DNA of 64,000 nucleotides from Flavobacteriales bacterium (lineage in GTDB: Bacteria; Bacteroidota; Bacteroidia; Flavobacteriales_C; GCA-002722245). Both the position numbers and the translations under genes were made by a program. The notes under the pieces were generated by a model. That model was not told the DNA's origin, did not search any database, and saw only the letters and a program-made list of their open reading frames with translations. Positions 41,251 to 48,254 of the stretch are shown here, in pieces. Within the stretch, counting starts at the first letter, position 1; every line of letters starts with the position of its first letter. Location: contig PBLA01000001.1 in NCBI GenBank assembly GCA_002722245.1, positions 22,292 through 86,291 of the forward strand, in the 5' to 3' direction.

Positions 41251-42087
41251 TTAAGTCAATGATTTTTTTCTCACCTTTTGCCAACCTAAAACGCTGAAAA
41301 GTCCTAATCCCATTAATACACCAATAGCAGGAACTGTAGGTATATCGAGAAATAGCGCAATAAAGTGACCACAGATACAACTCATAATACCAAAGCAAAC
41401 AGCAATGATCAAAAATGGTTTAAGTTTTTGAGTTATGACATGCGCAAATGATGCAGGTACAACTAATAATCCAATGACCATTATTGCTCCAACACTATCG
41501 AAACTATATACTGTGGAAACGCTTGACAGACCCAAAAGAAGATAGTTCCAAAAAGGAATAGAAATCCCTATAGATTTCGCGTATGCTTGATCAAAGCTGG
41601 TTAATTTAAAGCCTTTCAATCCCAGTAAAACAATAGGAGCTGTGATTAAAGAAATAATAATCAAATTAAAAGTAGGAGTGGGTATTCCCCATGTTTTAGG
41701 AACGATAGGGATCGTGTTAATGTCGCCAAATAAGACGCAGTCCACATCAATATCAGCATTTTTTGCTTGTGAAGTAATGAGTATAATTCCAATTGCAAAA
41801 AGGAGTGTGTAAATAATTCCAATTGAACTATCTTTTCCAAAACCTCCTATTCGATTCAACCACTCAATTAACAAAATAGCGATAATCCCAAATCCACTTG
41901 CACCAAGAAGCATCCAGAAAGAGTTGATTTCACCTGAAATCATAAAAGCAATAACAATACCAGGTAAAACAGCATGAGATAAGGCATCACCAATAAGACT
42001 CATTTTTCGAAGTACAAGAAAACTTCCCAGTAAACTGGAGTTTATGCCGATAATGCATGCAGTGAGTATAATCCAAAAATCAAACAT
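41251..42087 (-). CDS. metal (Mn/Zn/Fe) ABC transporter permease
   Basis: ABC-3 family topology with LLGSFLVLRKMSLIGDALSHAVLPGIV. About 278 aa. Confidence 0.85.
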   Translation of the reverse strand: MFDFWIILTACIIGINSSLLGSFLVLRKMSLIGDALSHAVLPGIVIAFMISGEINSFWMLLGASGFGIIAILLIEWLNRIGGFGKDSSIGIIYTLLFAIGIILITSQAKNADIDVDCVLFGDINTIPIVPKTWGIPTPTFNLIIISLITAPIVLLGLKGFKLTSFDQAYAKSIGISIPFWNYLLLGLSSVSTVYSFDSVGAIMVIGLLVVPASFAHVITQKLKPFLIIAVCFGIMSCICGHFIALFLDIPTVPAIGVLMGLGLFSVLGWQKVRKKSLT

Positions 42088-43439
42088 TAGTCTTCGTAAG
42101 GGATATTTTGTTGATGCGGATCGCTCGTTGGCCTCCCCAGTGTTTTTAATAATTCTGTTTCAAGGGATTTAGTCATGATGTGCTCAATGGATTCAGCACT
42201 TTCATGAACATGATCGGATTGTATTTGCATAAACTTTTCCATGTAAAGCTCCCACAATCTATGTATCCTAATAATTCTCTTTGCCTCTGCAATTCCTTTT
42301 TCAGTAAGCGTCCAAGCCCCATTCGCTTCAATTACAAACTTTTTTCTTTTTAAGATACTCAACCCTTTACTGAGATCAAAAGAAGCAAAAGGATGAAAAT
42401 TTTGAATCATTTGAACAGAATAACTTTGATCAAATTGGTTTTTGTGTTCACCTAATTTATACAGCGTTTTTAGGACATTATCCGAGATTATTTTATTTCG
42501 GTTTTGAATCCCCATTATTTTTTTTGTGATTAATCCCTTTCGAGATAGTAATGCGGACAAAATAGCGATGGTGGATAGTACTACAATAATCCAGGGGCCT
42601 GTAGGCATGTCTGGAAACAGATAGGAAACAAAAACACCCAAAATACTGCTTAAAGCTGCAAACGCACCAGACAATAAAATAGATTTTTTAAAGTGGTTGG
42701 TCCAGAAAAATGCAGAAGAGGCAGGAGTAATAATTAATGCACTCATCAGAATTATTCCAACTGTTTGAATTCCAATAGCAGTGCTCACGATAATTAATCC
42801 TGAAATTAGACTTTGAACAAGTTTGTTATTTAAACCAATTGTGTTTGCAAATCCCTGATCAAACAATGCAATTTTGAAGTGTCTATAAAATAAAATAACA
42901 ACCCCTAAAACAAGTCCACATAATCCACAAAAGAGATAGAGGTCTTTTCGAACAATCGTAGCTGCTTTTCCAAACAGAAAATCAGAAAGACCACTCTGCT
43001 GACTATTTCCTGAGTGTTGTATAATACTTAACAAAATAACACCTAAACTAAAGAGCACTGATAAGGCAATTGCAATGGCTGCATCTTTTTTAATTCGTGA
43101 GATTTTTGTTAACCAGTCTACAAGGAATACGGCAATTGCTCCAGCAAACATTCCTCCAGCTATTAAATAAATTGGATTTTTAACCCCAGAGAGCATAAAT
43201 CCTAAACATACACCTGGTAAAACAGAGTGGGAAACGGCATCAACAATTAATGCTTTTTTATTTAAAACAACTAAAACCCCTACAATACCGCACGTAAAAC
43301 CTAAAATTAACGTTCCAAAAAAAACGTTCGAAATATTGGCGTCTTGAAAAGAAAAAAAATAAATAAAATCGTCCCAAAATTTCATGTTACTCTCGAATTG
43401 GAAATTGTCGTTGTTTGTATACTTCACCCAATTGCTCAA
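42087..43439 (-). CDS. metal ABC transporter permease fused to a C-terminal DtxR/MntR-like regulator domain
   Basis: The N-terminal ~300 aa are an ABC-3 permease (IVDAVSHSVLPGV). The C-terminal ~150 aa are hydrophilic, with an HTH-like stretch and RIHRLWELYMEKF...HESAESIEHI. This parallels RKHRLWEVFLVEKLKFGWDEIHEIAEQLEHI of the adjacent stand-alone DtxR regulator. Confidence 0.7.
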   Translation of the reverse strand: MSNWVKYTNNDNFQFESNMKFWDDFIYFFSFQDANISNVFFGTLILGFTCGIVGVLVVLNKKALIVDAVSHSVLPGVCLGFMLSGVKNPIYLIAGGMFAGAIAVFLVDWLTKISRIKKDAAIAIALSVLFSLGVILLSIIQHSGNSQQSGLSDFLFGKAATIVRKDLYLFCGLCGLVLGVVILFYRHFKIALFDQGFANTIGLNNKLVQSLISGLIIVSTAIGIQTVGIILMSALIITPASSAFFWTNHFKKSILLSGAFAALSSILGVFVSYLFPDMPTGPWIIVVLSTIAILSALLSRKGLITKKIMGIQNRNKIISDNVLKTLYKLGEHKNQFDQSYSVQMIQNFHPFASFDLSKGLSILKRKKFVIEANGAWTLTEKGIAEAKRIIRIHRLWELYMEKFMQIQSDHVHESAESIEHIMTKSLETELLKTLGRPTSDPHQQNIPYED

Positions 43440-44172
43440 GAATACTCAGATTACCTCCGTAAGTTTTTTGCAGAAGTTCAGTAGTATATACGTCGTTAGT
43501 GGGACCACTCGCAACGATTCGTTTGTTAATAAGAACCATCCAATCAAAATATTCCATTGCAGATTGAAGGTCGTGATGAACAACAAAAATTGTTTTTCCT
43601 TCCTGTTGAAGCGTTAAAAGAAGATCAACAATTGCTTTTTCACTGGCCATATCAACACCAGCAAAAGGCTCATCCATGAAGTACAAATCTGCCTCTTGAG
43701 CCAAAGCTCGGGCAATGAATACACGTTGTTGTTGTCCACCAGAAAGAGCCGAAATATGATGCTTTGCGAAATCCATCATTTTTACTTTTTTAAGCGCATC
43801 AATAGCAATTTGTTTATCCTGTTTTGTTAGGCGTTTGAAAAGACTTTTTTTACCATATCTTCCCATTTCTACAACATCAAGGACAGTTGCAGGAAAATCC
43901 CAGTCAACCGATTCTTTCTGGGGTACATAAGCTATTTTTTGTCGAACCTTTTTTAAAGGTTGATTAAAGATTTTTACATAACCACTTGCTGATGGAACAA
44001 GTTCCATCATGGCTTTTAATAGGGTGGATTTACCCGCACCATTTGGCCCTATAATACCGACCATTTTCCCCTTAGGAATGTTAAAATCCACATTCCATAA
44101 TACGGGTTTATTATTATAGGCAACCGTTAAATCGTGAATTTCAACAATAGCCTCTTCTACATGCTTAATCAT
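43387..44172 (-). CDS. metal ABC transporter ATP-binding protein
   Basis: Walker A GPNGAGKST, ABC signature LSGGQQQR and Walker B LYFMDEP. Confidence 0.88.
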   Translation of the reverse strand: MIKHVEEAIVEIHDLTVAYNNKPVLWNVDFNIPKGKMVGIIGPNGAGKSTLLKAMMELVPSASGYVKIFNQPLKKVRQKIAYVPQKESVDWDFPATVLDVVEMGRYGKKSLFKRLTKQDKQIAIDALKKVKMMDFAKHHISALSGGQQQRVFIARALAQEADLYFMDEPFAGVDMASEKAIVDLLLTLQQEGKTIFVVHHDLQSAMEYFDWMVLINKRIVASGPTNDVYTTELLQKTYGGNLSILEQLGEVYKQRQFPIRE

Positions 44173-45113
44173 TTGCTTAATGCGCTAACAATTGTTTGGG
44201 TATTTTTTTTAATCATTTTAATGTAGGTTTCTGCACCACTTTGAGCATCACCTAAACCATCGCTGTAGAGCGTTCCACCAATTTTTAGGTCTAGTCCTTT
44301 TGATCGGCACCCTTCAATGATTGCATTGATATTTTTTCTAGAAACAGAATTTTCTATGAAAATGGCAGGGATTTTTCTACTTACTATAAGATCAGTTAAT
44401 TCTGTTATTCCGCGAACAGAAATATCGGATGCGGTTGATATACCTTGTACACCTTTTACTTCAATACCAAATGCTCGTCCATAATATCCGAATGCATCGT
44501 GCGCTGTAATCAACACCCTAATTGAATCAGGTATTTTATTCATTTCACGTTTAACATAAAGTTCAGTGGCTAATAATTTTTTTGTGTAGGATTTTGTTGC
44601 AGAATCAATATAGTTTTGATGAATAGGGAATTTTTTGGAAAATTCTTTTCCTACAAGTTCTACGGATGTTGCAAATAAATTAACATCATGCCAAAAATGT
44701 GGGTCATGAGCTGTTCCAAACTCTGTAGTTGCTCTTAATCTTTCCTCAGGTACAATTTCTCCGAGTTTAACCACATGACGAGATTTTCCTATTTCATCAA
44801 TAGCATCCAGCAAGTTAGATTCAAAGTGAATACCATTACAGGCAACAGATTCTGCGTTTAACATCGCTTTCATTTCAGATGCTTTACTCTTGTAGGTATG
44901 GGGGTCAACTCCAGGACCCATTAATGCTTCGATTTCAAAGGGTGTAGGAGGAAGGATGTTCTTCATAGCATCAGCAATTACACCTGTTGTACAAATTACA
45001 TGAACGCTCGAAGATGACATCTTATTTTCATGCGATGAACATCCAATTATAATAAGAATGGAAAGAAGGGGAAGATAAAGCAGGTTTTTCATATTATTTT
45101 TCTTTGGAAACAT
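44169..45113 (-). CDS. metal ABC transporter substrate-binding lipoprotein (TroA/ZnuA/MntC family)
   Basis: Signal peptide with lipobox (IIGCSS). Cluster-9 SBP length, with conserved HDPHFWHD and AHDAFGY metal-site regions. Confidence 0.8.
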   Translation of the reverse strand: MFPKKNNMKNLLYLPLLSILIIIGCSSHENKMSSSSVHVICTTGVIADAMKNILPPTPFEIEALMGPGVDPHTYKSKASEMKAMLNAESVACNGIHFESNLLDAIDEIGKSRHVVKLGEIVPEERLRATTEFGTAHDPHFWHDVNLFATSVELVGKEFSKKFPIHQNYIDSATKSYTKKLLATELYVKREMNKIPDSIRVLITAHDAFGYYGRAFGIEVKGVQGISTASDISVRGITELTDLIVSRKIPAIFIENSVSRKNINAIIEGCRSKGLDLKIGGTLYSDGLGDAQSGAETYIKMIKKNTQTIVSALSK

Positions 45114-45756
45114 TAAGGTTTTTAGCCACTAATTCTGAAAATGTCCGTTCAGTTTTTTGATTGACCAAAACTTTTAAGGACTTGTCAAATTGAAAGAAAT
45201 CTAAAATTTCAATGGATGAACCCAGTTTGAGGTCGATACTATCTAAATATCTTAAGAAATCTTTGGAGTCTTCAGAGACACCAATTAAAATTGATTTTTC
45301 ACCAATTGATAAATCATTTAATTTGTATTTTTTTAGAGTATGAAACTCGCCTTTTTTGTTTGGAATGGGATCACCATGAGGATCGTTTTTTGGATATCCC
45401 AAGTGCTCGTCCAATTTATCAATAAGTTTTGCGGATTTAATGTGCTCCAATTGCTCAGCAATTTCATGAATTTCATCCCATCCGAATTTAAGTTTCTCTA
45501 CCAAAAAAACTTCCCACAAACGATGTTTTCTTATTACATGTAATGCAATTTGTTCACCTTCTTTTGAAAGTGTTGTTCCTTGATATTTTATATAGTTTAC
45601 TAAACCTTTGTCGGCCAATTTTTTTACCATATCGGATACCGAGGAAGCTTTTGTAGAGAGCTCTTCAGCAATTGCATTGGTGGAAACTCCTTCTTTTGAT
45701 GGTCCGCTTAACTTAAAAATTGCTTTTAGATAATCTTCGGTGGTACTGGTTTGCAT
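45094..45756 (-). CDS. DtxR/MntR-family metal-dependent transcriptional regulator with C-terminal FeoA/SH3-like domain
   Basis: N-terminal wHTH (EDYLKAIFKL), a metal-binding/dimerisation region (RKHRLWEVF...HEIAEQLEH...DPHGDPIP) and a C-terminal SH3-like extension. It is first in the transporter operon. Confidence 0.8.
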   Translation of the reverse strand: MQTSTTEDYLKAIFKLSGPSKEGVSTNAIAEELSTKASSVSDMVKKLADKGLVNYIKYQGTTLSKEGEQIALHVIRKHRLWEVFLVEKLKFGWDEIHEIAEQLEHIKSAKLIDKLDEHLGYPKNDPHGDPIPNKKGEFHTLKKYKLNDLSIGEKSILIGVSEDSKDFLRYLDSIDLKLGSSIEILDFFQFDKSLKVLVNQKTERTFSELVAKNLNVSKEK

Positions 45757-45766
45757 TTACTCTAAG

Positions 45767-45804
45767 ATTTAGACAAAGATAAACAAATTTAGACTTGTCT
45801 AAAT
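45767..45804. promoter_or_regulatory. candidate DtxR/MntR operator: ATTTAGAC half-sites incl. perfect 8-2-8 inverted repeat
   Basis: ATTTAGAC-TT-GTCTAAAT at 45787-45804, plus an extra direct copy of ATTTAGAC at 45767-45774 (20 bp away). These sit 11-48 bp upstream of the regulator start codon (45756, minus strand). Confidence 0.4.
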
Positions 45805-45934
45805 ACCGTGTTTGGTGTAACTAAAAATATTGGCAAACAGTTGTTTTAGCTGTTTTTTATAGAAATCGATGATAAAATATATTTAGTTCGTAGTTTCTTT
45901 TTTTGAAATCTGAATTTGGTTAACTTAGAAAGTA

Positions 45935-46342
45935 ATGAAAAAGCTTCTTTTTTTGGTGCTTACTCTTACAGTTTTAGGTTGCACGAATAATAATGGTACG
46001 GTATTATGGAGAGTTTGGTATGCTGTTCAGGTACCGCCTAATTACGATTTGAAAATCACCTACAATTCGGATAAGTTTTTTGATTCGGGCGTGCATGATA
46101 CGATTTATGTTCATGACAGTAGCTATGTACAGCAATTAGATGGTTTTTGGATCGGTCAACGCCTTCAAGAGAACAAAGAACATGGCTATTATATAAATAT
46201 TAAAATTGATTCCTTAACACCTTATGATGGTCATTTAGGTGTATTTGTATATGCGAATGATACATCTTTACTGGATTCTGTTTTATATCCATATGGAAGA
46301 AAAGAAATCACCCTTCAAGGTGATATTCCAATCAATTTTTAA
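45935..46342 (+). CDS. hypothetical lipoprotein
   Basis: Signal peptide with lipobox (LTVLGCTNNNG). No domain recognised. Confidence 0.4.
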   Translation: MKKLLFLVLTLTVLGCTNNNGTVLWRVWYAVQVPPNYDLKITYNSDKFFDSGVHDTIYVHDSSYVQQLDGFWIGQRLQENKEHGYYINIKIDSLTPYDGHLGVFVYANDTSLLDSVLYPYGRKEITLQGDIPINF

Positions 46343-46344
46343 CT

Positions 46345-46761
46345 ATGCAACGAAAAATTTTAATAACAGCGGCGGTTATGGGGGTATTATCCGTTATAAT
46401 TGGTGCTTGGGCTGCTCACGGTATACAAGGCGTGATTTTGGATTCTGATCCTGATAAAATGAGTAAAATTGATAGTTTTAAGGTTGGAGTTCGTTACCAA
46501 TTTTATCATACTTTTCTTCTTTTGTTTTTGAGTTTAATACCAATTGAACGGTTTTCTAGTTTATTGTCTATTGTGTATAGATTAGTTGTTATAGGCGTAG
46601 TCCTGTTTTCAGGATCAATTTATGCATTAGCGCTCAAAAGTCAACTCGGGCTTGAAGGGGCTACAAAGTTTCTAGGTCCTATAACTCCTATTGGAGGCTT
46701 AACGTTAATTGTTGCCTGGAGTATATTGGTGTTCTATGGTTTAAAACAAAAAAAAATATGA
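46345..46761 (+). CDS. DUF423 membrane protein
   Basis: Four TM helices. AAVMGVLSVIIGAWAAHG and HTFLLL motifs are typical of DUF423. Confidence 0.55.
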   Translation: MQRKILITAAVMGVLSVIIGAWAAHGIQGVILDSDPDKMSKIDSFKVGVRYQFYHTFLLLFLSLIPIERFSSLLSIVYRLVVIGVVLFSGSIYALALKSQLGLEGATKFLGPITPIGGLTLIVAWSILVFYGLKQKKI

Positions 46762-48254
46762 TGGAGAATACATACGAAGGATATAAAGCTCATTTGCAAA
46801 AAATTGCCCATTTAAATTCAACTATGGCGTTATTAAGTTGGGATCAAGAAACCAATATGCCTAAAAAGGGAGCAGCGATCAGAGCGCAGCAGTTAAGTAC
46901 TTTGAGTACAATGGTACATGAATTGTTTACTGATCTTCGATTTGAAAACCTGGTAAATCATTTATTGGCAAAAAGTTGTTTTGGGTTTAAAGAGATGCGT
47001 AATCTTCAACTTACCAAGGAGTCTATTGAAGAAAATAAAAAACTTAATTCAGACTTCATTAAAAGGGCTGCAATTGCACGATCGGAGGCATTTCAATCAT
47101 GGGAACAAGCTCGAAGAGAAGAGCGTTTTTCTGTATTTATTCCGAGTCTTCAAAAAATTGTTGATTTAGAAAAAGAGAAAGCAGAACTATTAGGGTACAA
47201 CGATCATCCTTATGATGCCCTTTTAAACTTATATGAAAAAGATTCTACTGTTCATCAATTGAAGCAGGTTTTTACTCAGGTTAAGAACCATATCGTACCA
47301 TTTATTCAAGAAATATCAGCCAACGAACAGGTGGACGATTCCTTTCTGTATCAATATTATAATAAAGATGCACAATTTGATTTTAGTTTGGAGTTGTTAA
47401 ACTTTATGGGGTATGATTTTGATGCGGGAAGGCAAGATTTATCTACCCATCCTTTTACGATTAATTTTAGCGCTCATGACGTAAGATTGACTACAAGAGT
47501 CAATGAATATAATTTGTCGGAAGTGATTTGGAGTACCATTCATGAAGGCGGGCATGGGCTTTATGAGCAAGGTTTACCTATCAACCACTATGGGCTGCCA
47601 AGTGGTGAATATGTGAGTTTAGGTATTCACGAATCTCAGAGCCGGATTTGGGAAAATAACATTGGAAGAGCACTCCCTTGGTGGAAATTTTTATACCCTA
47701 AACTTCAAAAAGTCTTCCCTGAACAGCTTGGAGATGTTTCATTAGACCAGTTTTACAAGGCGATCAATAAGGTGCAGCCTTCTCTTATTCGAACCTCTGC
47801 TGATGAATTGACTTATCATGTGCATGTGATGATACGGTTTGAGATAGAGTGTAGCCTAATGGAGGGGGTAATTGAAGTTACAGATCTTGAGGAAGTTTGG
47901 AACGAAAAATACCAAGATTATTTAGGTGTAACACCTGATAAACCAACTGAAGGGATATTACAAGATATTCACTGGAGTCATGGAAGTTTAGGGTATTTCC
48001 CTACGTATTCAGTTGGAAGCTTTTATGCCGCCCAATTATATGCTCAAGCGGAAAAAGATATTCCTAATTTGGATGAAAAACTTGCCCAAGGAAAGACGAA
48101 TGATTTTTTAACCCTCATGCGGAAAAAGATTCATCAGTATGGTAAGTTATATCCCGCTGACCAGCTCGTGGAGCGTTTTAGCGGTGAGTCATTGAATATC
48201 AAGTATTTTATGGATTATGTTCATGAAAAATATCTCAAGATTTATGGTTTTTAA
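46758..48254 (+). CDS. M32 carboxypeptidase (carboxypeptidase Taq family)
   Basis: HEGGHGLYEQG zinc-binding HExxH, family-specific GIHESQSRIWEN and HPF motifs. About 498 aa. ATGA overlap with the upstream gene. Confidence 0.85.
   Translation: MMENTYEGYKAHLQKIAHLNSTMALLSWDQETNMPKKGAAIRAQQLSTLSTMVHELFTDLRFENLVNHLLAKSCFGFKEMRNLQLTKESIEENKKLNSDFIKRAAIARSEAFQSWEQARREERFSVFIPSLQKIVDLEKEKAELLGYNDHPYDALLNLYEKDSTVHQLKQVFTQVKNHIVPFIQEISANEQVDDSFLYQYYNKDAQFDFSLELLNFMGYDFDAGRQDLSTHPFTINFSAHDVRLTTRVNEYNLSEVIWSTIHEGGHGLYEQGLPINHYGLPSGEYVSLGIHESQSRIWENNIGRALPWWKFLYPKLQKVFPEQLGDVSLDQFYKAINKVQPSLIRTSADELTYHVHVMIRFEIECSLMEGVIEVTDLEEVWNEKYQDYLGVTPDKPTEGILQDIHWSHGSLGYFPTYSVGSFYAAQLYAQAEKDIPNLDEKLAQGKTNDFLTLMRKKIHQYGKLYPADQLVERFSGESLNIKYFMDYVHEKYLKIYGF

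Follow-up and report, generated by a model that had tools for sequence, protein, structure and literature searches.

A conserved candidate operator upstream of an MntR-type DtxR-family regulator and its tro-like metal transporter operon in a Flavobacteriales bacterium

We analysed a stretch of 64,000 nucleotides (the window) from a Flavobacteriales bacterium, in which the intergenic region 45757-45934 lies upstream of a gene encoding a DtxR-family regulator. The regulator gene heads five minus-strand genes that overlap or abut one another (45113/45094, 44172/44169, 43387/43385 and 42087/42087). The gene set is the one proposed as an operon in an earlier note made from the sequence alone, but the order of the last two genes differs, as the permease fused to a DtxR-like module is encoded fourth and not fifth (Table 1). 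Relatives of this fusion align from residue 19 of a longer ORF beginning with TTG, and its likely start is the ATG at 43385 (432 aa). The four transporter genes are tightly linked and encode a tro-type (cluster A-I) importer, with a binding protein of TroA/ZnuA fold, an ATPase and a pair of ABC-3 permeases.

Table 1. Genes and predicted regulatory features of the regulator-transporter locus (window coordinates)
Feature	Coordinates	Strand	Basis or remark
DtxR/MntR-family regulator, 220 aa	45094..45756	-	Pfam HTH, Fe_dep_repr_C, FeoA/SH3; NCBIfam MntR-like
TroA/ZnuA-family substrate-binding protein	44169..45113	-	Pfam ZnuA
ABC transporter ATPase	43387..44172	-	Pfam ABC_tran; closest NCBIfam models are Mn/Fe ABC ATPases
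ABC-3 permease with C-terminal DtxR-like module	42087..43385	-	Pfam ABC-3 and Fe_dep_repr_C; YtgC-YtgR-like
Second ABC-3 permease, unfused	41251..42087	-	Pfam ABC-3
Site 1, predicted main operator	45787..45804	no strand	ATTTAGAC-TT-GTCTAAAT; PWM and conservation
Putative -7 promoter box of the regulator operon	45774..45781	-	TATCTTTG; matches Bacteroidota consensus TAnnTTTG
Site 2, degenerate upstream operator copy	45809..45826	no strand	minus-strand reading TTTTAG-TTACAC-CAAACA
Site 3, possible weak site	45766..45785	no strand	includes extra half-site ATTTAGAC at 45767-45774

The regulator has the domain order of the DtxR/MntR family, with an N-terminal winged helix-turn-helix (Fe_dep_repress) ahead of the domain for metal binding and dimerisation (Fe_dep_repr_C), and its Pfam matches (PF01325, 3e-18; PF02742, 2e-30; PF04023, FeoA/SH3-like, 1e-7) are all above the gathering scores. 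Its best match in the PDB is Mycobacterium tuberculosis MntR (5zr4, 2e-40) and the second-best is SloR (5cvi, 3e-32), with further matches to DR2539 of Deinococcus radiodurans (8pvt, 6e-31) and to ScaR. Among NCBIfam models MntR (NF047407) fits best, but its 158 bits fall short of the cut-off of 350; the protein belongs to the family without being equivalog to any curated MntR or DtxR. Alignments to 5zr4, 5cvi, 8pvt and 3hrs place residues of MntR type, D8, E101, E104 and H105, at the ligand positions; the reference ligands are Asp, Glu, Glu and His in the Mn-type and Met, Cys, Glu and His in the Fe-type (PMC4805248). A Mn-type ligand set is suggested for the regulator, and its metal selectivity is a prediction from these residues.

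The binding protein is closest to TroA of Treponema pallidum (best PDB match 1toa, E = 3e-64) and retains, in the alignment, the DPH, DPH, AHD and SD motifs at the ligand-bearing positions of TroA. TroA and TroR have been tied to Zn, Mn and Fe (PMC2628430), reportedly also in earlier T. pallidum papers. In addition, DR2539 responds in vitro to several metals. For these reasons the effector metal, most likely Mn2+, is uncertain.

The intergenic region carries a perfect inverted repeat formed by ATTTAGAC (45787-45794), TT (45795-45796) and GTCTAAAT (45797-45804), and a further direct copy of ATTTAGAC is located at 45767-45774, as the earlier note described. All three half-sites lie 11-48 bp upstream of the ATG of the regulator (45756, minus strand). 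The palindrome (site 1) can be read with 8-2-8 geometry or, as ATTTAG-ACTTGT-CTAAAT, with 6-6-6 geometry; its core is TTTAG-N6-CTAAA, and it fits the form of DR2539/TroR/SloR-type operators, A/T-flanked dyads of 18-20 bp with arms of 5-6 bp spaced by 6 bp. An exact palindrome is by itself unremarkable here, and its significance comes from position and conservation, not from symmetry: the window contains seven perfect 8-2-8 inverted repeats against 2.1 +/- 1.4 expected from Markov simulations, and four copies of ATTTAGAC against 3.4 expected. When the window was searched for the pattern of the earlier note with up to three mismatches, site 1 was the sole match, a result that is uninformative taken alone because 1.0 match is expected in shuffled sequence.

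Comparison with related genomes is far more telling. TTAG-N6-CTAA occurs within 200 bp upstream of the orthologous regulator in 77 of 80 genomes, which cover Flavobacteriaceae, Solitalea, Saprospiraceae, Cyclobacteriaceae and Chitinophagales. In background sequence the pattern is found 28 times in 905,670 bp, giving a naive binomial P of ~1e-166 that overstates independence, since the loci are phylogenetically related. The consensus of 73 distinct sites is TTTTTAGAC-WW-GTCTAAAAA. Positions left free in the search pattern are also kept (T before TTAG and A after CTAA, each in 72 of the 73), and the flanking A/T tracts are likewise conserved. With a position weight matrix (PWM) built from these 73 sites at orthologous loci, site 1 scores 24.6 bits and is the only match of at least 10 bits in the window. 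Only five matches of at least 14 bits were found in ~0.9 Mb of other locus DNA: one precedes a gene for a TonB-dependent receptor (L018), one precedes a second copy of the regulator gene (L043), and three fall within coding sequence. The motif is both conserved upstream of orthologous regulators and enriched there, as expected of an operator.

The association is also seen when the search begins from the motif. Scanning metagenomes for the exact sequence TTTAGAC-NN-GTCTAAA returned 120 matches, 81 of them intergenic, and the 58 flanking genes include 13 of the DtxR family, which is the commonest, five TonB-receptor genes (Plug), and one each for Nramp, ZnuA and ABC-3. The earlier note had named a lack of enrichment near metal genes as evidence against its proposal; the exact matches are instead strongly enriched beside these families. 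Genes linked to both regulator and motif are metal importers, comprising tro-like ABC transporters, ZIP, Nramp-Usp and TonB receptors, with Nramp linked to the motif in Solitalea and many metagenome contigs. The motif is also found beside DtxR homologues on contigs with 67-71% GC.

A scan of 45500-46200 for sigma-70 promoters and terminators gave nothing beyond shuffled expectation, and sigma-70 is the wrong promoter type for Bacteroidota. We therefore used the Bacteroidota -7 consensus TAnnTTTG (PMC7641319), which identified a putative -7 box 5 nt downstream of site 1; site 1 is thus predicted to cover the -33 region. In the alignment of the seven closest sequences (A1), conservation starts sharply at site 2 and continues through site 1 and the -7 box, where TTAT(C/A)TTT(G/A) is kept in all seven, while DNA further upstream than site 2 cannot be aligned. 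A gap of 7-10 nt from the CTAA core to TAnnTTTG (L001, L004, L005, L024, L036, L048, L054 and L072) is common to the window's clade, Solitalea and Saprospiraceae. In most Flavobacteriaceae, it is a divergent TonB-receptor gene whose -7 box keeps a 9-nt gap to the core, while the -7 box of the regulator itself lies 25-34 nt downstream of the site, so that control of the divergent gene is clearer there than autoregulation. Site 1 lies at the predicted core promoter of the metal-uptake operon, which is also the regulator's own operon. With the promoter predicted from its consensus match, this placement fits metal-dependent repression and autoregulation. An Rfam scan of 45650-46000 returned two sub-threshold matches only (E 0.5-0.7), and hence no riboswitch or leader RNA.

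Two weaker copies flank the palindrome. Site 2 has one mismatch in the TTAG/CTAA core and a centre-to-centre distance of 22 bp to site 1. Its PWM score in the window is only 2.5 bits, still among the top 19 of 64,000 positions, and the same position holds a full TTAG-N6-CTAA in three relatives (L002, L003 and L006) and a near-consensus copy in two (L004 and L005). Site 3, centred 20 bp from site 1, extends over the -7 box and the likely start of transcription, and its partner half is without the invariant G. The extra half-site proposed earlier is present, but a role for it is only weakly supported: the CTAAA half is conserved in only two or three of six close relatives (L001 and L002 keep it, L005 has it shifted, and L003, L004 and L006 have lost it), and as a full site it reaches 6.5 bits against 24.6 for site 1, although it is one of only three window positions with at least 5 bits.

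The motif resembles operators that have been characterised in other phyla. DR2539 is a DtxR-family Mn sensor with DNA-binding, dimerisation and ancillary domains, like the window regulator. Its binding to the operator ATTTTAGTCGCGCCTAAAAT in the dr1709 (Nramp/mntH) promoter requires divalent metal, and a crystal structure of the complex is available (bioRxiv 10.1101/2024.02.12.579695). This operator shares the TTTAG-N6-CTAAA core and A/T flanks with site 1 and the Bacteroidota consensus, and is essentially identical to them. However, its central 6 bp are GC-rich, whereas the centre in the window and in Bacteroidota is (A/G)C-WW-G(T/C). The turn before the recognition helix also differs, APA in DR2539 and KAS in the window regulator, so that identical base contacts are not guaranteed. 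The two systems belong to different phyla, and in the window the transporter operon begins with the regulator gene, for which autoregulation is predicted.

TroR of Treponema denticola is a Mn/Fe-dependent repressor with an SH3-like domain, and its box, ATTTTGATATATCAAAAT, located at the promoter or close to it, is a dyad of 18 bp with 8-2-8 geometry (PMC2628430). The box and site 1 are identical at 12 of 18 positions. The Treponema troABCDR operon encodes a binding protein, an ATPase, two permeases and a DtxR-like repressor, as does the window operon. However, its half-site is TTTTGA rather than TTTAGA, troR is last in the operon whereas the window regulator is first, and there is no permease-repressor fusion. 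Streptococcus mutans has three SloR recognition elements (SREs) with 6-6-6 architecture (AATTAA-N6-TTAATT), 4 bp apart, that overlap the -10/-35 elements of sloABC (PMC12096823). The resulting spacing of 18+4 = 22 bp is the same as that of sites 1 and 2 in the window, and the 18-bp 6-6-6 geometry is common to the TroR, SloR and window operators (PMC2628430, PMC12096823). In contrast, the SloR half-site is AATTAA and that of the window is ATTTAG, and the flanking sites in the window are weak and partly conserved.

The earlier note considered the half-site unlike the classical DtxR box and possibly specific to Bacteroidota. The 19-bp box of Corynebacterium DtxR and Mycobacterium IdeR is TTAGGTTAGCCTAACCTAA (PMC7762939). 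It contains TTAG-N6-CTAA twice, in overlapping copies, with the arm sequence and spacing of site 1. Read against crystal structures of DtxR with DNA, each embedded TTAG-N6-CTAA unit would be the site of one dimer. DtxR and IdeR differ in that two dimers occupy each 19-bp box, whereas the window sites are separate 18-mers, and in sensing Fe2+ via Met/Cys ligands rather than the Asp/Glu ligands of the window regulator. This DtxR consensus, the DR2539 operator, the TroR box of T. denticola and the contigs with 67-71% GC all speak against the view of the earlier note. The only characterised DtxR-family regulator from Bacteroidota found in a literature search was PgMntR of Porphyromonas gingivalis, of the same phylum as the window organism, which differs in having two FeoA domains and for which a 385-bp fragment alone was tested and no operator defined. 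The same search, with regulon databases such as RegPrecise outside its reach, found no described DtxR/MntR motif for Bacteroidota.

Taken together, these observations make it very probable that the 18-bp palindrome serves as the high-affinity operator for the MntR-type DtxR-family repressor whose gene lies directly downstream. The earlier proposal of an autoregulated DtxR/MntR-family operator gains support from the motif just upstream of the regulator in 77 of 80 loci and from the abutment of site 1 on the -7 box. When cytoplasmic metal (most likely Mn2+) is sufficient, a metal-loaded dimer of the regulator would set one recognition helix on the TTTAG arm and the other on the CTAAA arm, one helical turn away. 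As site 1 sits next to the -7 box of this Bacteroidota-type promoter and occupies its -33 region, the bound protein would block RNA polymerase, and we infer repression rather than activation. The entire operon, including the regulator, the TroA-like binding protein, the ATPase and the two permeases, would be turned off, and the outcome would be negative autoregulation together with feedback control of uptake. Filling of the weaker copies on either side, at 22 bp upstream and 20 bp downstream, may be cooperative.

Such an operator is well supported but ordinary. The motif is neither Bacteroidota-specific nor new, because the same motif has already been characterised for the related Deinococcus regulator, and understanding of the family is unchanged, motif and mechanism being established in Deinococcus, Treponema and streptococci. 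The operator model (TTTAG-N6-CTAAA with the 73-site PWM) is transferable to MntR-type regulators of marine Flavobacteriales and other Bacteroidota, and lends itself to the annotation of Mn/metal regulons in genomes and MAGs of Bacteroidota, where operator-linked TonB-dependent receptors become candidate outer-membrane metal importers.

The permease fusion raises the question of a second DtxR-like sensor. Chlamydia trachomatis YtgC-YtgR, part of a metal ABC operon, is an ABC-3-type permease with a C-terminal DtxR-like domain (PMC6504234), and the fourth gene of the window operon has the same architecture, which recurs in five related loci (L001, L002, L004, L005 and L054). The fused module is 41% identical to the regulator over residues 62-132, to which the BLASTP alignment is limited, and keeps an H/E/E/H ligand pattern. 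Unlike the window, Chlamydia has no separate DtxR regulator beside the fusion, and the HTH part of the window's module is degenerate. We regard it as possible but unlikely that two sensors act on this one promoter, a soluble MntR-type repressor nucleating on the strong central site and a membrane-tethered YtgR-like permease module. The module could be released to the weaker flanking sites or could instead gate the transporter directly on cytoplasmic metal, and in both cases transcriptional and transport-level feedback would be coupled. On this view the operator would, in Flavobacteriaceae, also mark out a regulon with a dedicated TonB-dependent outer-membrane receptor for manganese or a manganese chelate.

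A still less likely reading has the DtxR-like domain of the permease, freed by cleavage, as the main protein on the palindrome, or has both proteins share it. There is precedent in Chlamydia, where YtgR, once cleaved off, acts as a repressor of the ytg operon that encodes it (PMC6504234), and the ligand pattern and recurrence of the fusion are compatible with such a role. However, the motif follows the stand-alone regulator in ~70 loci that have no fusion protein, and Pfam detects no N-terminal HTH domain in the fusion, whose BLASTP match to the regulator begins only at residue 62.

It is very improbable that site 1 belongs to another factor, such as Fur, Zur or another global regulator, or is a generic AT-rich element of Bacteroidota promoters. 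It is indeed AT-rich and overlaps the -33 region, and the conservation extends to its flanking A/T tracts, yet the motif accompanies a DtxR-family gene whatever the cargo (ABC, ZIP, Nramp, paralogue or TonB receptor) and DtxR-family genes are the top flanking family in the motif-first scan. Its single occurrence in 64 kb argues against a general promoter feature. Moreover, experiments have defined the motif as the operator of a homologous DtxR-family protein (bioRxiv 10.1101/2024.02.12.579695). It is hardly credible that the palindrome is a product of chance, or an RNA hairpin (attenuator or terminator), and plays no part in DNA binding: 8-2-8 inverted repeats are not rare in the window (seven against ~2 expected) and the left arm can pair with the third half-site in an RNA fold of -11.1 kcal/mol, but conservation in 77 of 80 loci effectively refutes this reading, the fold of the leader/operator region is not significant (z = -1.55; 13 of 200 shuffles fold equally well), no Rfam match has E < 0.4, and the palindrome is upstream of the predicted -7 box and hence would not be transcribed with the operon.

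Co-regulation of the divergent lipoprotein gene (45935), which had also been suggested, is unsupported though not disproved, as the operator is too far from the likely promoter and the gene has no homologue at the 80 related loci. The palindrome centre is 139 bp from the lipoprotein ATG and would be ~90-100 bp upstream of the transcription start if the best imperfect plus-strand -7-like match is the promoter. The lipoprotein belongs to no Pfam or NCBIfam family.

As a separate observation, a TTTAGG-N4-CCTAAA sequence was judged most likely a by-product of conserved coding sequence. It is conserved ~355 bp inside the regulator gene of six relatives (L001, L002, L004, L005, L062 and L069) and is absent from the gene in the window.

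The palindrome in the 178-bp intergenic region 45757-45934 is very likely an operator at which an MntR-type repressor of the DtxR family would autoregulate a tro-like metal-uptake operon by promoter occlusion. An earlier note had predicted an autoregulated, metal-responsive operator here, and this prediction is strengthened by the occurrence of the site at 77 of 80 related loci, its repressor-type promoter position, and its sharing of the motif of the homologue DR2539. The palindrome and an extra half-site, both within this region, agree exactly with the note's description, and Pfam agrees with its gene content, all on the minus strand. The permease-DtxR fusion, however, is the fourth gene and not the fifth; it probably begins at ATG 43385 (432 aa), because the alignment of relatives starts only at residue 19 of a longer TTG ORF. 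The five genes overlap or abut, which fits a single operon. The operator model is useful for regulon annotation in Bacteroidota, and not surprising. Identical copies of the regulator protein are on record from marine Flavobacteriales MAGs, Tara samples among them.

Features of the probable operator region and linked genes (L001-L080, genome loci encoding relatives of the regulator; higher L numbers, metagenome loci; other coordinates, window)
Feature	Position	Strand	Assignment or sequence
DtxR-family regulator, 220 aa	45756-45094	minus	Pfam Fe_dep_repress, Fe_dep_repr_C, FeoA/SH3 domains
ZnuA/TroA-type binding protein	45113-44169	minus	Pfam
ABC ATPase	44172-43387	minus	Pfam
ABC-3 permease with C-terminal Fe_dep_repr_C module	42087-43385	minus	Pfam
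Plain ABC-3 permease	42087-41251	minus	Pfam
Site 1, left arm	45787-45794		ATTTAGAC
Site 1, centre (between arms)	45795-45796		TT
Site 1, right arm	45797-45804		GTCTAAAT
Extra direct half-site	45767-45774		ATTTAGAC
Site 2	45809-45826		degenerate copy
Site 3	45766-45785		possible weak copy
Putative -7 box	45781-45774	minus	TATCTTTG, fits Bacteroidota/Flavobacterium TAnnTTTG
Divergent gene, putative lipoprotein, 135 aa	45935	plus	protein start MKKLLFLVLTLTVLGC
DUF423 membrane protein	46345-46761	plus	
M32 (Taq-type) metallocarboxypeptidase	46758-48254	plus	
Other perfect 8-2-8 repeats	13325, 33241, 41925, 43991		
Other perfect 8-2-8 repeat	24168		ACCCAGGG-AT-CCCTGGGT
Other perfect 8-2-8 repeat	52040		ACATAAAT-TA-ATTTATGT
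Match inside regulator gene	L001:6355, L002:5511, L004:4520, L005:6355, L062:6349, L069:6349		TTTAGG-N4-CCTAAA
Permease fusion in relatives	L001:8376-9671, L002, L004, L005, L054		
340-aa DtxR paralogue	L022:6651-7673, L025, L038, L039, L042-L044, L051, L055-L057, L059, L061, L067, L068, L070, L079		
Nramp-Usp fusion, genome loci	L012:6654-8540, L036, L048, L073		
Nramp-Usp fusion, metagenome loci	L148, L156, L176-L178, L186, L189, L197		

Symmetry alone does not put the palindrome above chance. Simulations under a first-order Markov model give 2.1 +/- 1.4 perfect 8-2-8 inverted repeats, and the window holds seven; the octamer ATTTAGAC occurs four times (3.4 expected), and the note's pattern at up to three mismatches has a shuffled expectation of 1.0 in the window. 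The case therefore depends on conservation and context.

The footprinting set comprised 80 genome loci whose encoded regulators are 49-86% identical to that of the window, from many Flavobacteriaceae genera, Solitalea, Saprospiraceae, Cyclobacteriaceae and Chitinophagales. TTAG-N6-CTAA lies within 200 bp upstream of the regulator in 77 of them; the other 905,670 bp of these loci contain 28 matches, so that a 200-bp stretch would be expected to hold 0.006. A naive binomial probability of ~1e-166 follows, which overstates independence, since the loci are related. As to the three exceptions, the contig end falls inside the site in L033, L050 carries the variant TTTAAACTAGTTTAAA, and L053 lacks the site within 200 bp upstream of the regulator. 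The DNA around the site varies from locus to locus. Among 73 distinct sites, T precedes TTAG in 72 and A follows CTAA in 72, and arm position 6 is C or T with G or A at the mirror position, all positions that the search pattern left free; the consensus is TTTTTAGAC-WW-GTCTAAAAA. By a symmetrised position weight matrix site 1 scores 24.6 bits and is the sole position of at least 10 bits in 64 kb. Only five positions in the rest of the 80 loci reach 14 bits, one preceding a Dokdonia TonB-dependent receptor, one a second regulator copy (L043), and three within coding sequence. Some relatives carry a further match about 355 bp into the regulator gene (15-19 bits in L005, L062 and L069), not found in the window's own regulator gene; most likely it merely reflects the conservation of the coding sequence, but it may be an internal operator.

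In an alignment of the window with L001-L006, its clade, the sharply conserved block has site 2 (TTTTTAGAnTACCCTAAA) first; four bases further on comes site 1 (ATTTAGACAAGCCTAAA) and then, past a short spacer, TTAT(C/A)TTT(G/A), which is followed by a variable leader and ATG; no conservation was seen upstream of about column 50. The -7 box consensus of Bacteroidota/Flavobacterium is TAnnTTTG (PMC7641319). Site 1 ends 5 nt upstream of the putative -7 box, so that, counting from this predicted box, it would span roughly -17 to -35, including the -33 element, the classical position for a repressor. The distance between the CTAA core and the regulator's -7 box is 7-10 nt in the window clade, Solitalea, Saprospiraceae and a few others, and 25-34 nt in most Flavobacteriaceae. 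In the latter group a CAAAnnTA on the reverse strand lies 9 nt from the core and is the -7 box for a divergent gene, usually one encoding a TonB-dependent receptor of about 760 aa; ten such loci also have an ABC transporter farther upstream, encoded on the receptor's strand. The operator is thus fixed relative to a promoter, while the choice of promoter varies, and the arrangement suggests that an outer-membrane receptor for manganese or another metal is under operator control.

Scores of at least 0 bits are reached at only 19 of some 64,000 positions in the window; three of the 19 fall in the 60-bp operator stretch, at centre spacings of 20 and 22 bp. Site 2 has one core mismatch and scores 2.5 bits; its position holds a full match in L002, L003 and L006, of which L002 and L006 match better there than at site 1. 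The note's extra half-site is part of site 3 (6.5 bits), which overlaps the -7 box and likely start site; its CTAAA is kept only in L001 and L002, shifted in L005, and lost in L003, L004 and L006. The three SloR recognition elements at sloABC are spaced 22 bp apart (18+4) (PMC12096823), equal to the spacing of sites 1 and 2. Site 2 is probably an operator copy, and site 3 possibly one.

The half-site had been thought unlike the DtxR box and possibly Bacteroidota-specific. Neither view holds: the DtxR consensus TTAGGTTAGCCTAACCTAA contains TTAG-N6-CTAA, as does the window motif, and the DR2539 operator of Deinococcus has the same TTTAG-N6-CTAAA motif, which also occurs on contigs of 67-71% GC. 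In the dr1709 (Nramp) promoter the site recognised by DR2539 is ATTTTAGTCGCGCCTAAAAT, and binding requires a divalent metal; the complex has been crystallised, one 5-bp arm being read per DNA-binding domain, with the arm thymines critical (bioRxiv 10.1101/2024.02.12.579695). For TroR, the oligonucleotides in PMC2628430 give ATTTTGATATATCAAAAT as the box of T. denticola and ACTTTGATGCATCAAAAT as that of T. pallidum; the T. denticola box is an 8-2-8 dyad of 18 bp and agrees with the window site at 12 of the 18 positions. Sites of SloR have the 6-6-6 form AATTAA-N6-TTAATT. In the literature we found PgMntR alone as a characterised Bacteroidota DtxR-family member, for which the DNA tested was one 385-bp fragment, and no published description of the motif for Bacteroidota. 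Only the assignment of a known motif to a Bacteroidota regulator is new.

The closest solved structures to the regulator are M. tuberculosis MntR (5zr4, 2e-40), SloR (5cvi, 3e-32), D. radiodurans DR2539 (8pvt, 6e-31) and ScaR (3hrs, 9e-27), all Mn-responsive, whereas DtxR and IdeR reach only 1e-11 to 1e-15. By alignment its primary-site residues are D8, E101, E104 and H105; B. subtilis MntR has Asp/Glu/Glu/His at these positions, and DtxR has Met/Cys/Glu/His (PMC4805248). This points to Mn2+ as the most likely effector, an assignment we consider rather probable. Since it reaches no NCBIfam equivalog cut-off, the regulator counts as a family member rather than a curated MntR. Nearest to the binding protein is T. 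pallidum TroA (3e-64), and the motifs DPH, DPH, AHD and SD are retained at the positions that bear ligands in TroA, so the metal may also be Zn or Fe.

The true binder in the window operon could instead be the DtxR-like module fused to the permease, for which Chlamydia YtgC-YtgR, of the same architecture, is a precedent (PMC6504234). The window operon differs in also having a stand-alone DtxR-family regulator. Against the module as binder, the motif tracks the stand-alone regulator in about 70 fusion-free loci, and the module's HTH is degenerate. In the fusion this degenerate winged helix covers about aa 290-358 and Fe_dep_repr_C about aa 360-430, and an H/E/E/H ligand pattern is retained; the module might act as a second repressor after release, or it might sense metal and gate the transporter. 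A generic promoter element, or a site of another factor, is contradicted by two facts: the 64 kb contain a single match, and the association with a DtxR gene is strict, regardless of cargo. An RNA element in place of a DNA operator finds no Rfam match and an insignificant fold.

Association of the motif with DtxR-family regulators is also seen in metagenome contigs, where a scan for exact TTTAGAC-NN-GTCTAAA gave at least 120 matches, an arbitrary sample; among the matches listed, 39 lie within long ORFs and 81 are intergenic. Genes starting within 350 bp of an intergenic match and pointing away from it numbered 58 among the matches listed; of these, 13 encode Fe_dep_repr_C (12 with FeoA, 11 with the DtxR HTH), five a TonB-receptor Plug domain, and one each Nramp, ZnuA, ABC-3 and a di-haem oxidoreductase, which also adjoins the regulator in genome loci. 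Using tblastn, regulator-Nramp, regulator-ZIP, regulator-ABC and TonB receptor/regulator arrangements were found directly at metagenome matches. On the general estimate that DtxR-family genes make up a tiny fraction of bacterial genes, the enrichment beside the motif is very large. The earlier note had named a lack of enrichment upstream of metal genes as evidence against an operator; the motif is enriched beside DtxR-family and metal-transport genes. At L113 (GC 0.71) and L141 (GC 0.67) the exact motif immediately precedes DtxR-family genes whose products share 41-45% identity with the window regulator, and L141 also has Nramp; the range of the motif therefore extends past AT-rich Bacteroidota.

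Co-regulation of the divergent gene, also proposed, is unsupported. The start of its product looks like a lipoprotein signal; the ORF has no family assignment, none of the 80 loci has a homologue of it, and the regulator's upstream neighbour is different in every close relative. Between the palindrome centre and the ATG of the divergent gene lie 139 bp. Reading by eye between the two, we found no exact TAnnTTTG on the plus strand; the nearest approximation, TATATTTA near 45881-45888, would as a -7 box leave the operator about 90-100 bp upstream of the transcription start. No link to the operator was seen for the DUF423 and M32 genes downstream; L012 and L177 have DUF423 as well, at a distance of a few kb from the regulator.

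Across loci, the cargo linked to regulator and motif comprises tro-like ABC transporters, ZIP, Nramp-Usp fusions, a 340-aa DtxR paralogue and TonB receptors. The paralogue (Fe_dep_repr_C and FeoA, no HTH domain detected by Pfam) directly follows the regulator in loci of Formosa, Mariniflexile and Saprospiraceae. Receptors with CarboxypepD_reg, Plug and barrel domains are divergent from the regulator at L008:3631-5907 and about 35 other loci, and the co-directional receptor in Dokdonia (L018:3054-5426) is preceded by its own 23-bit site at L018:2962. Outside Flavobacteriaceae the commonest partner of regulator and operator is Nramp (MntH) with a C-terminal universal stress protein domain (about 625 aa). 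In Solitalea and several metagenome contigs a divergent AsnC/Lrp-type regulator lies on the operator's other side.
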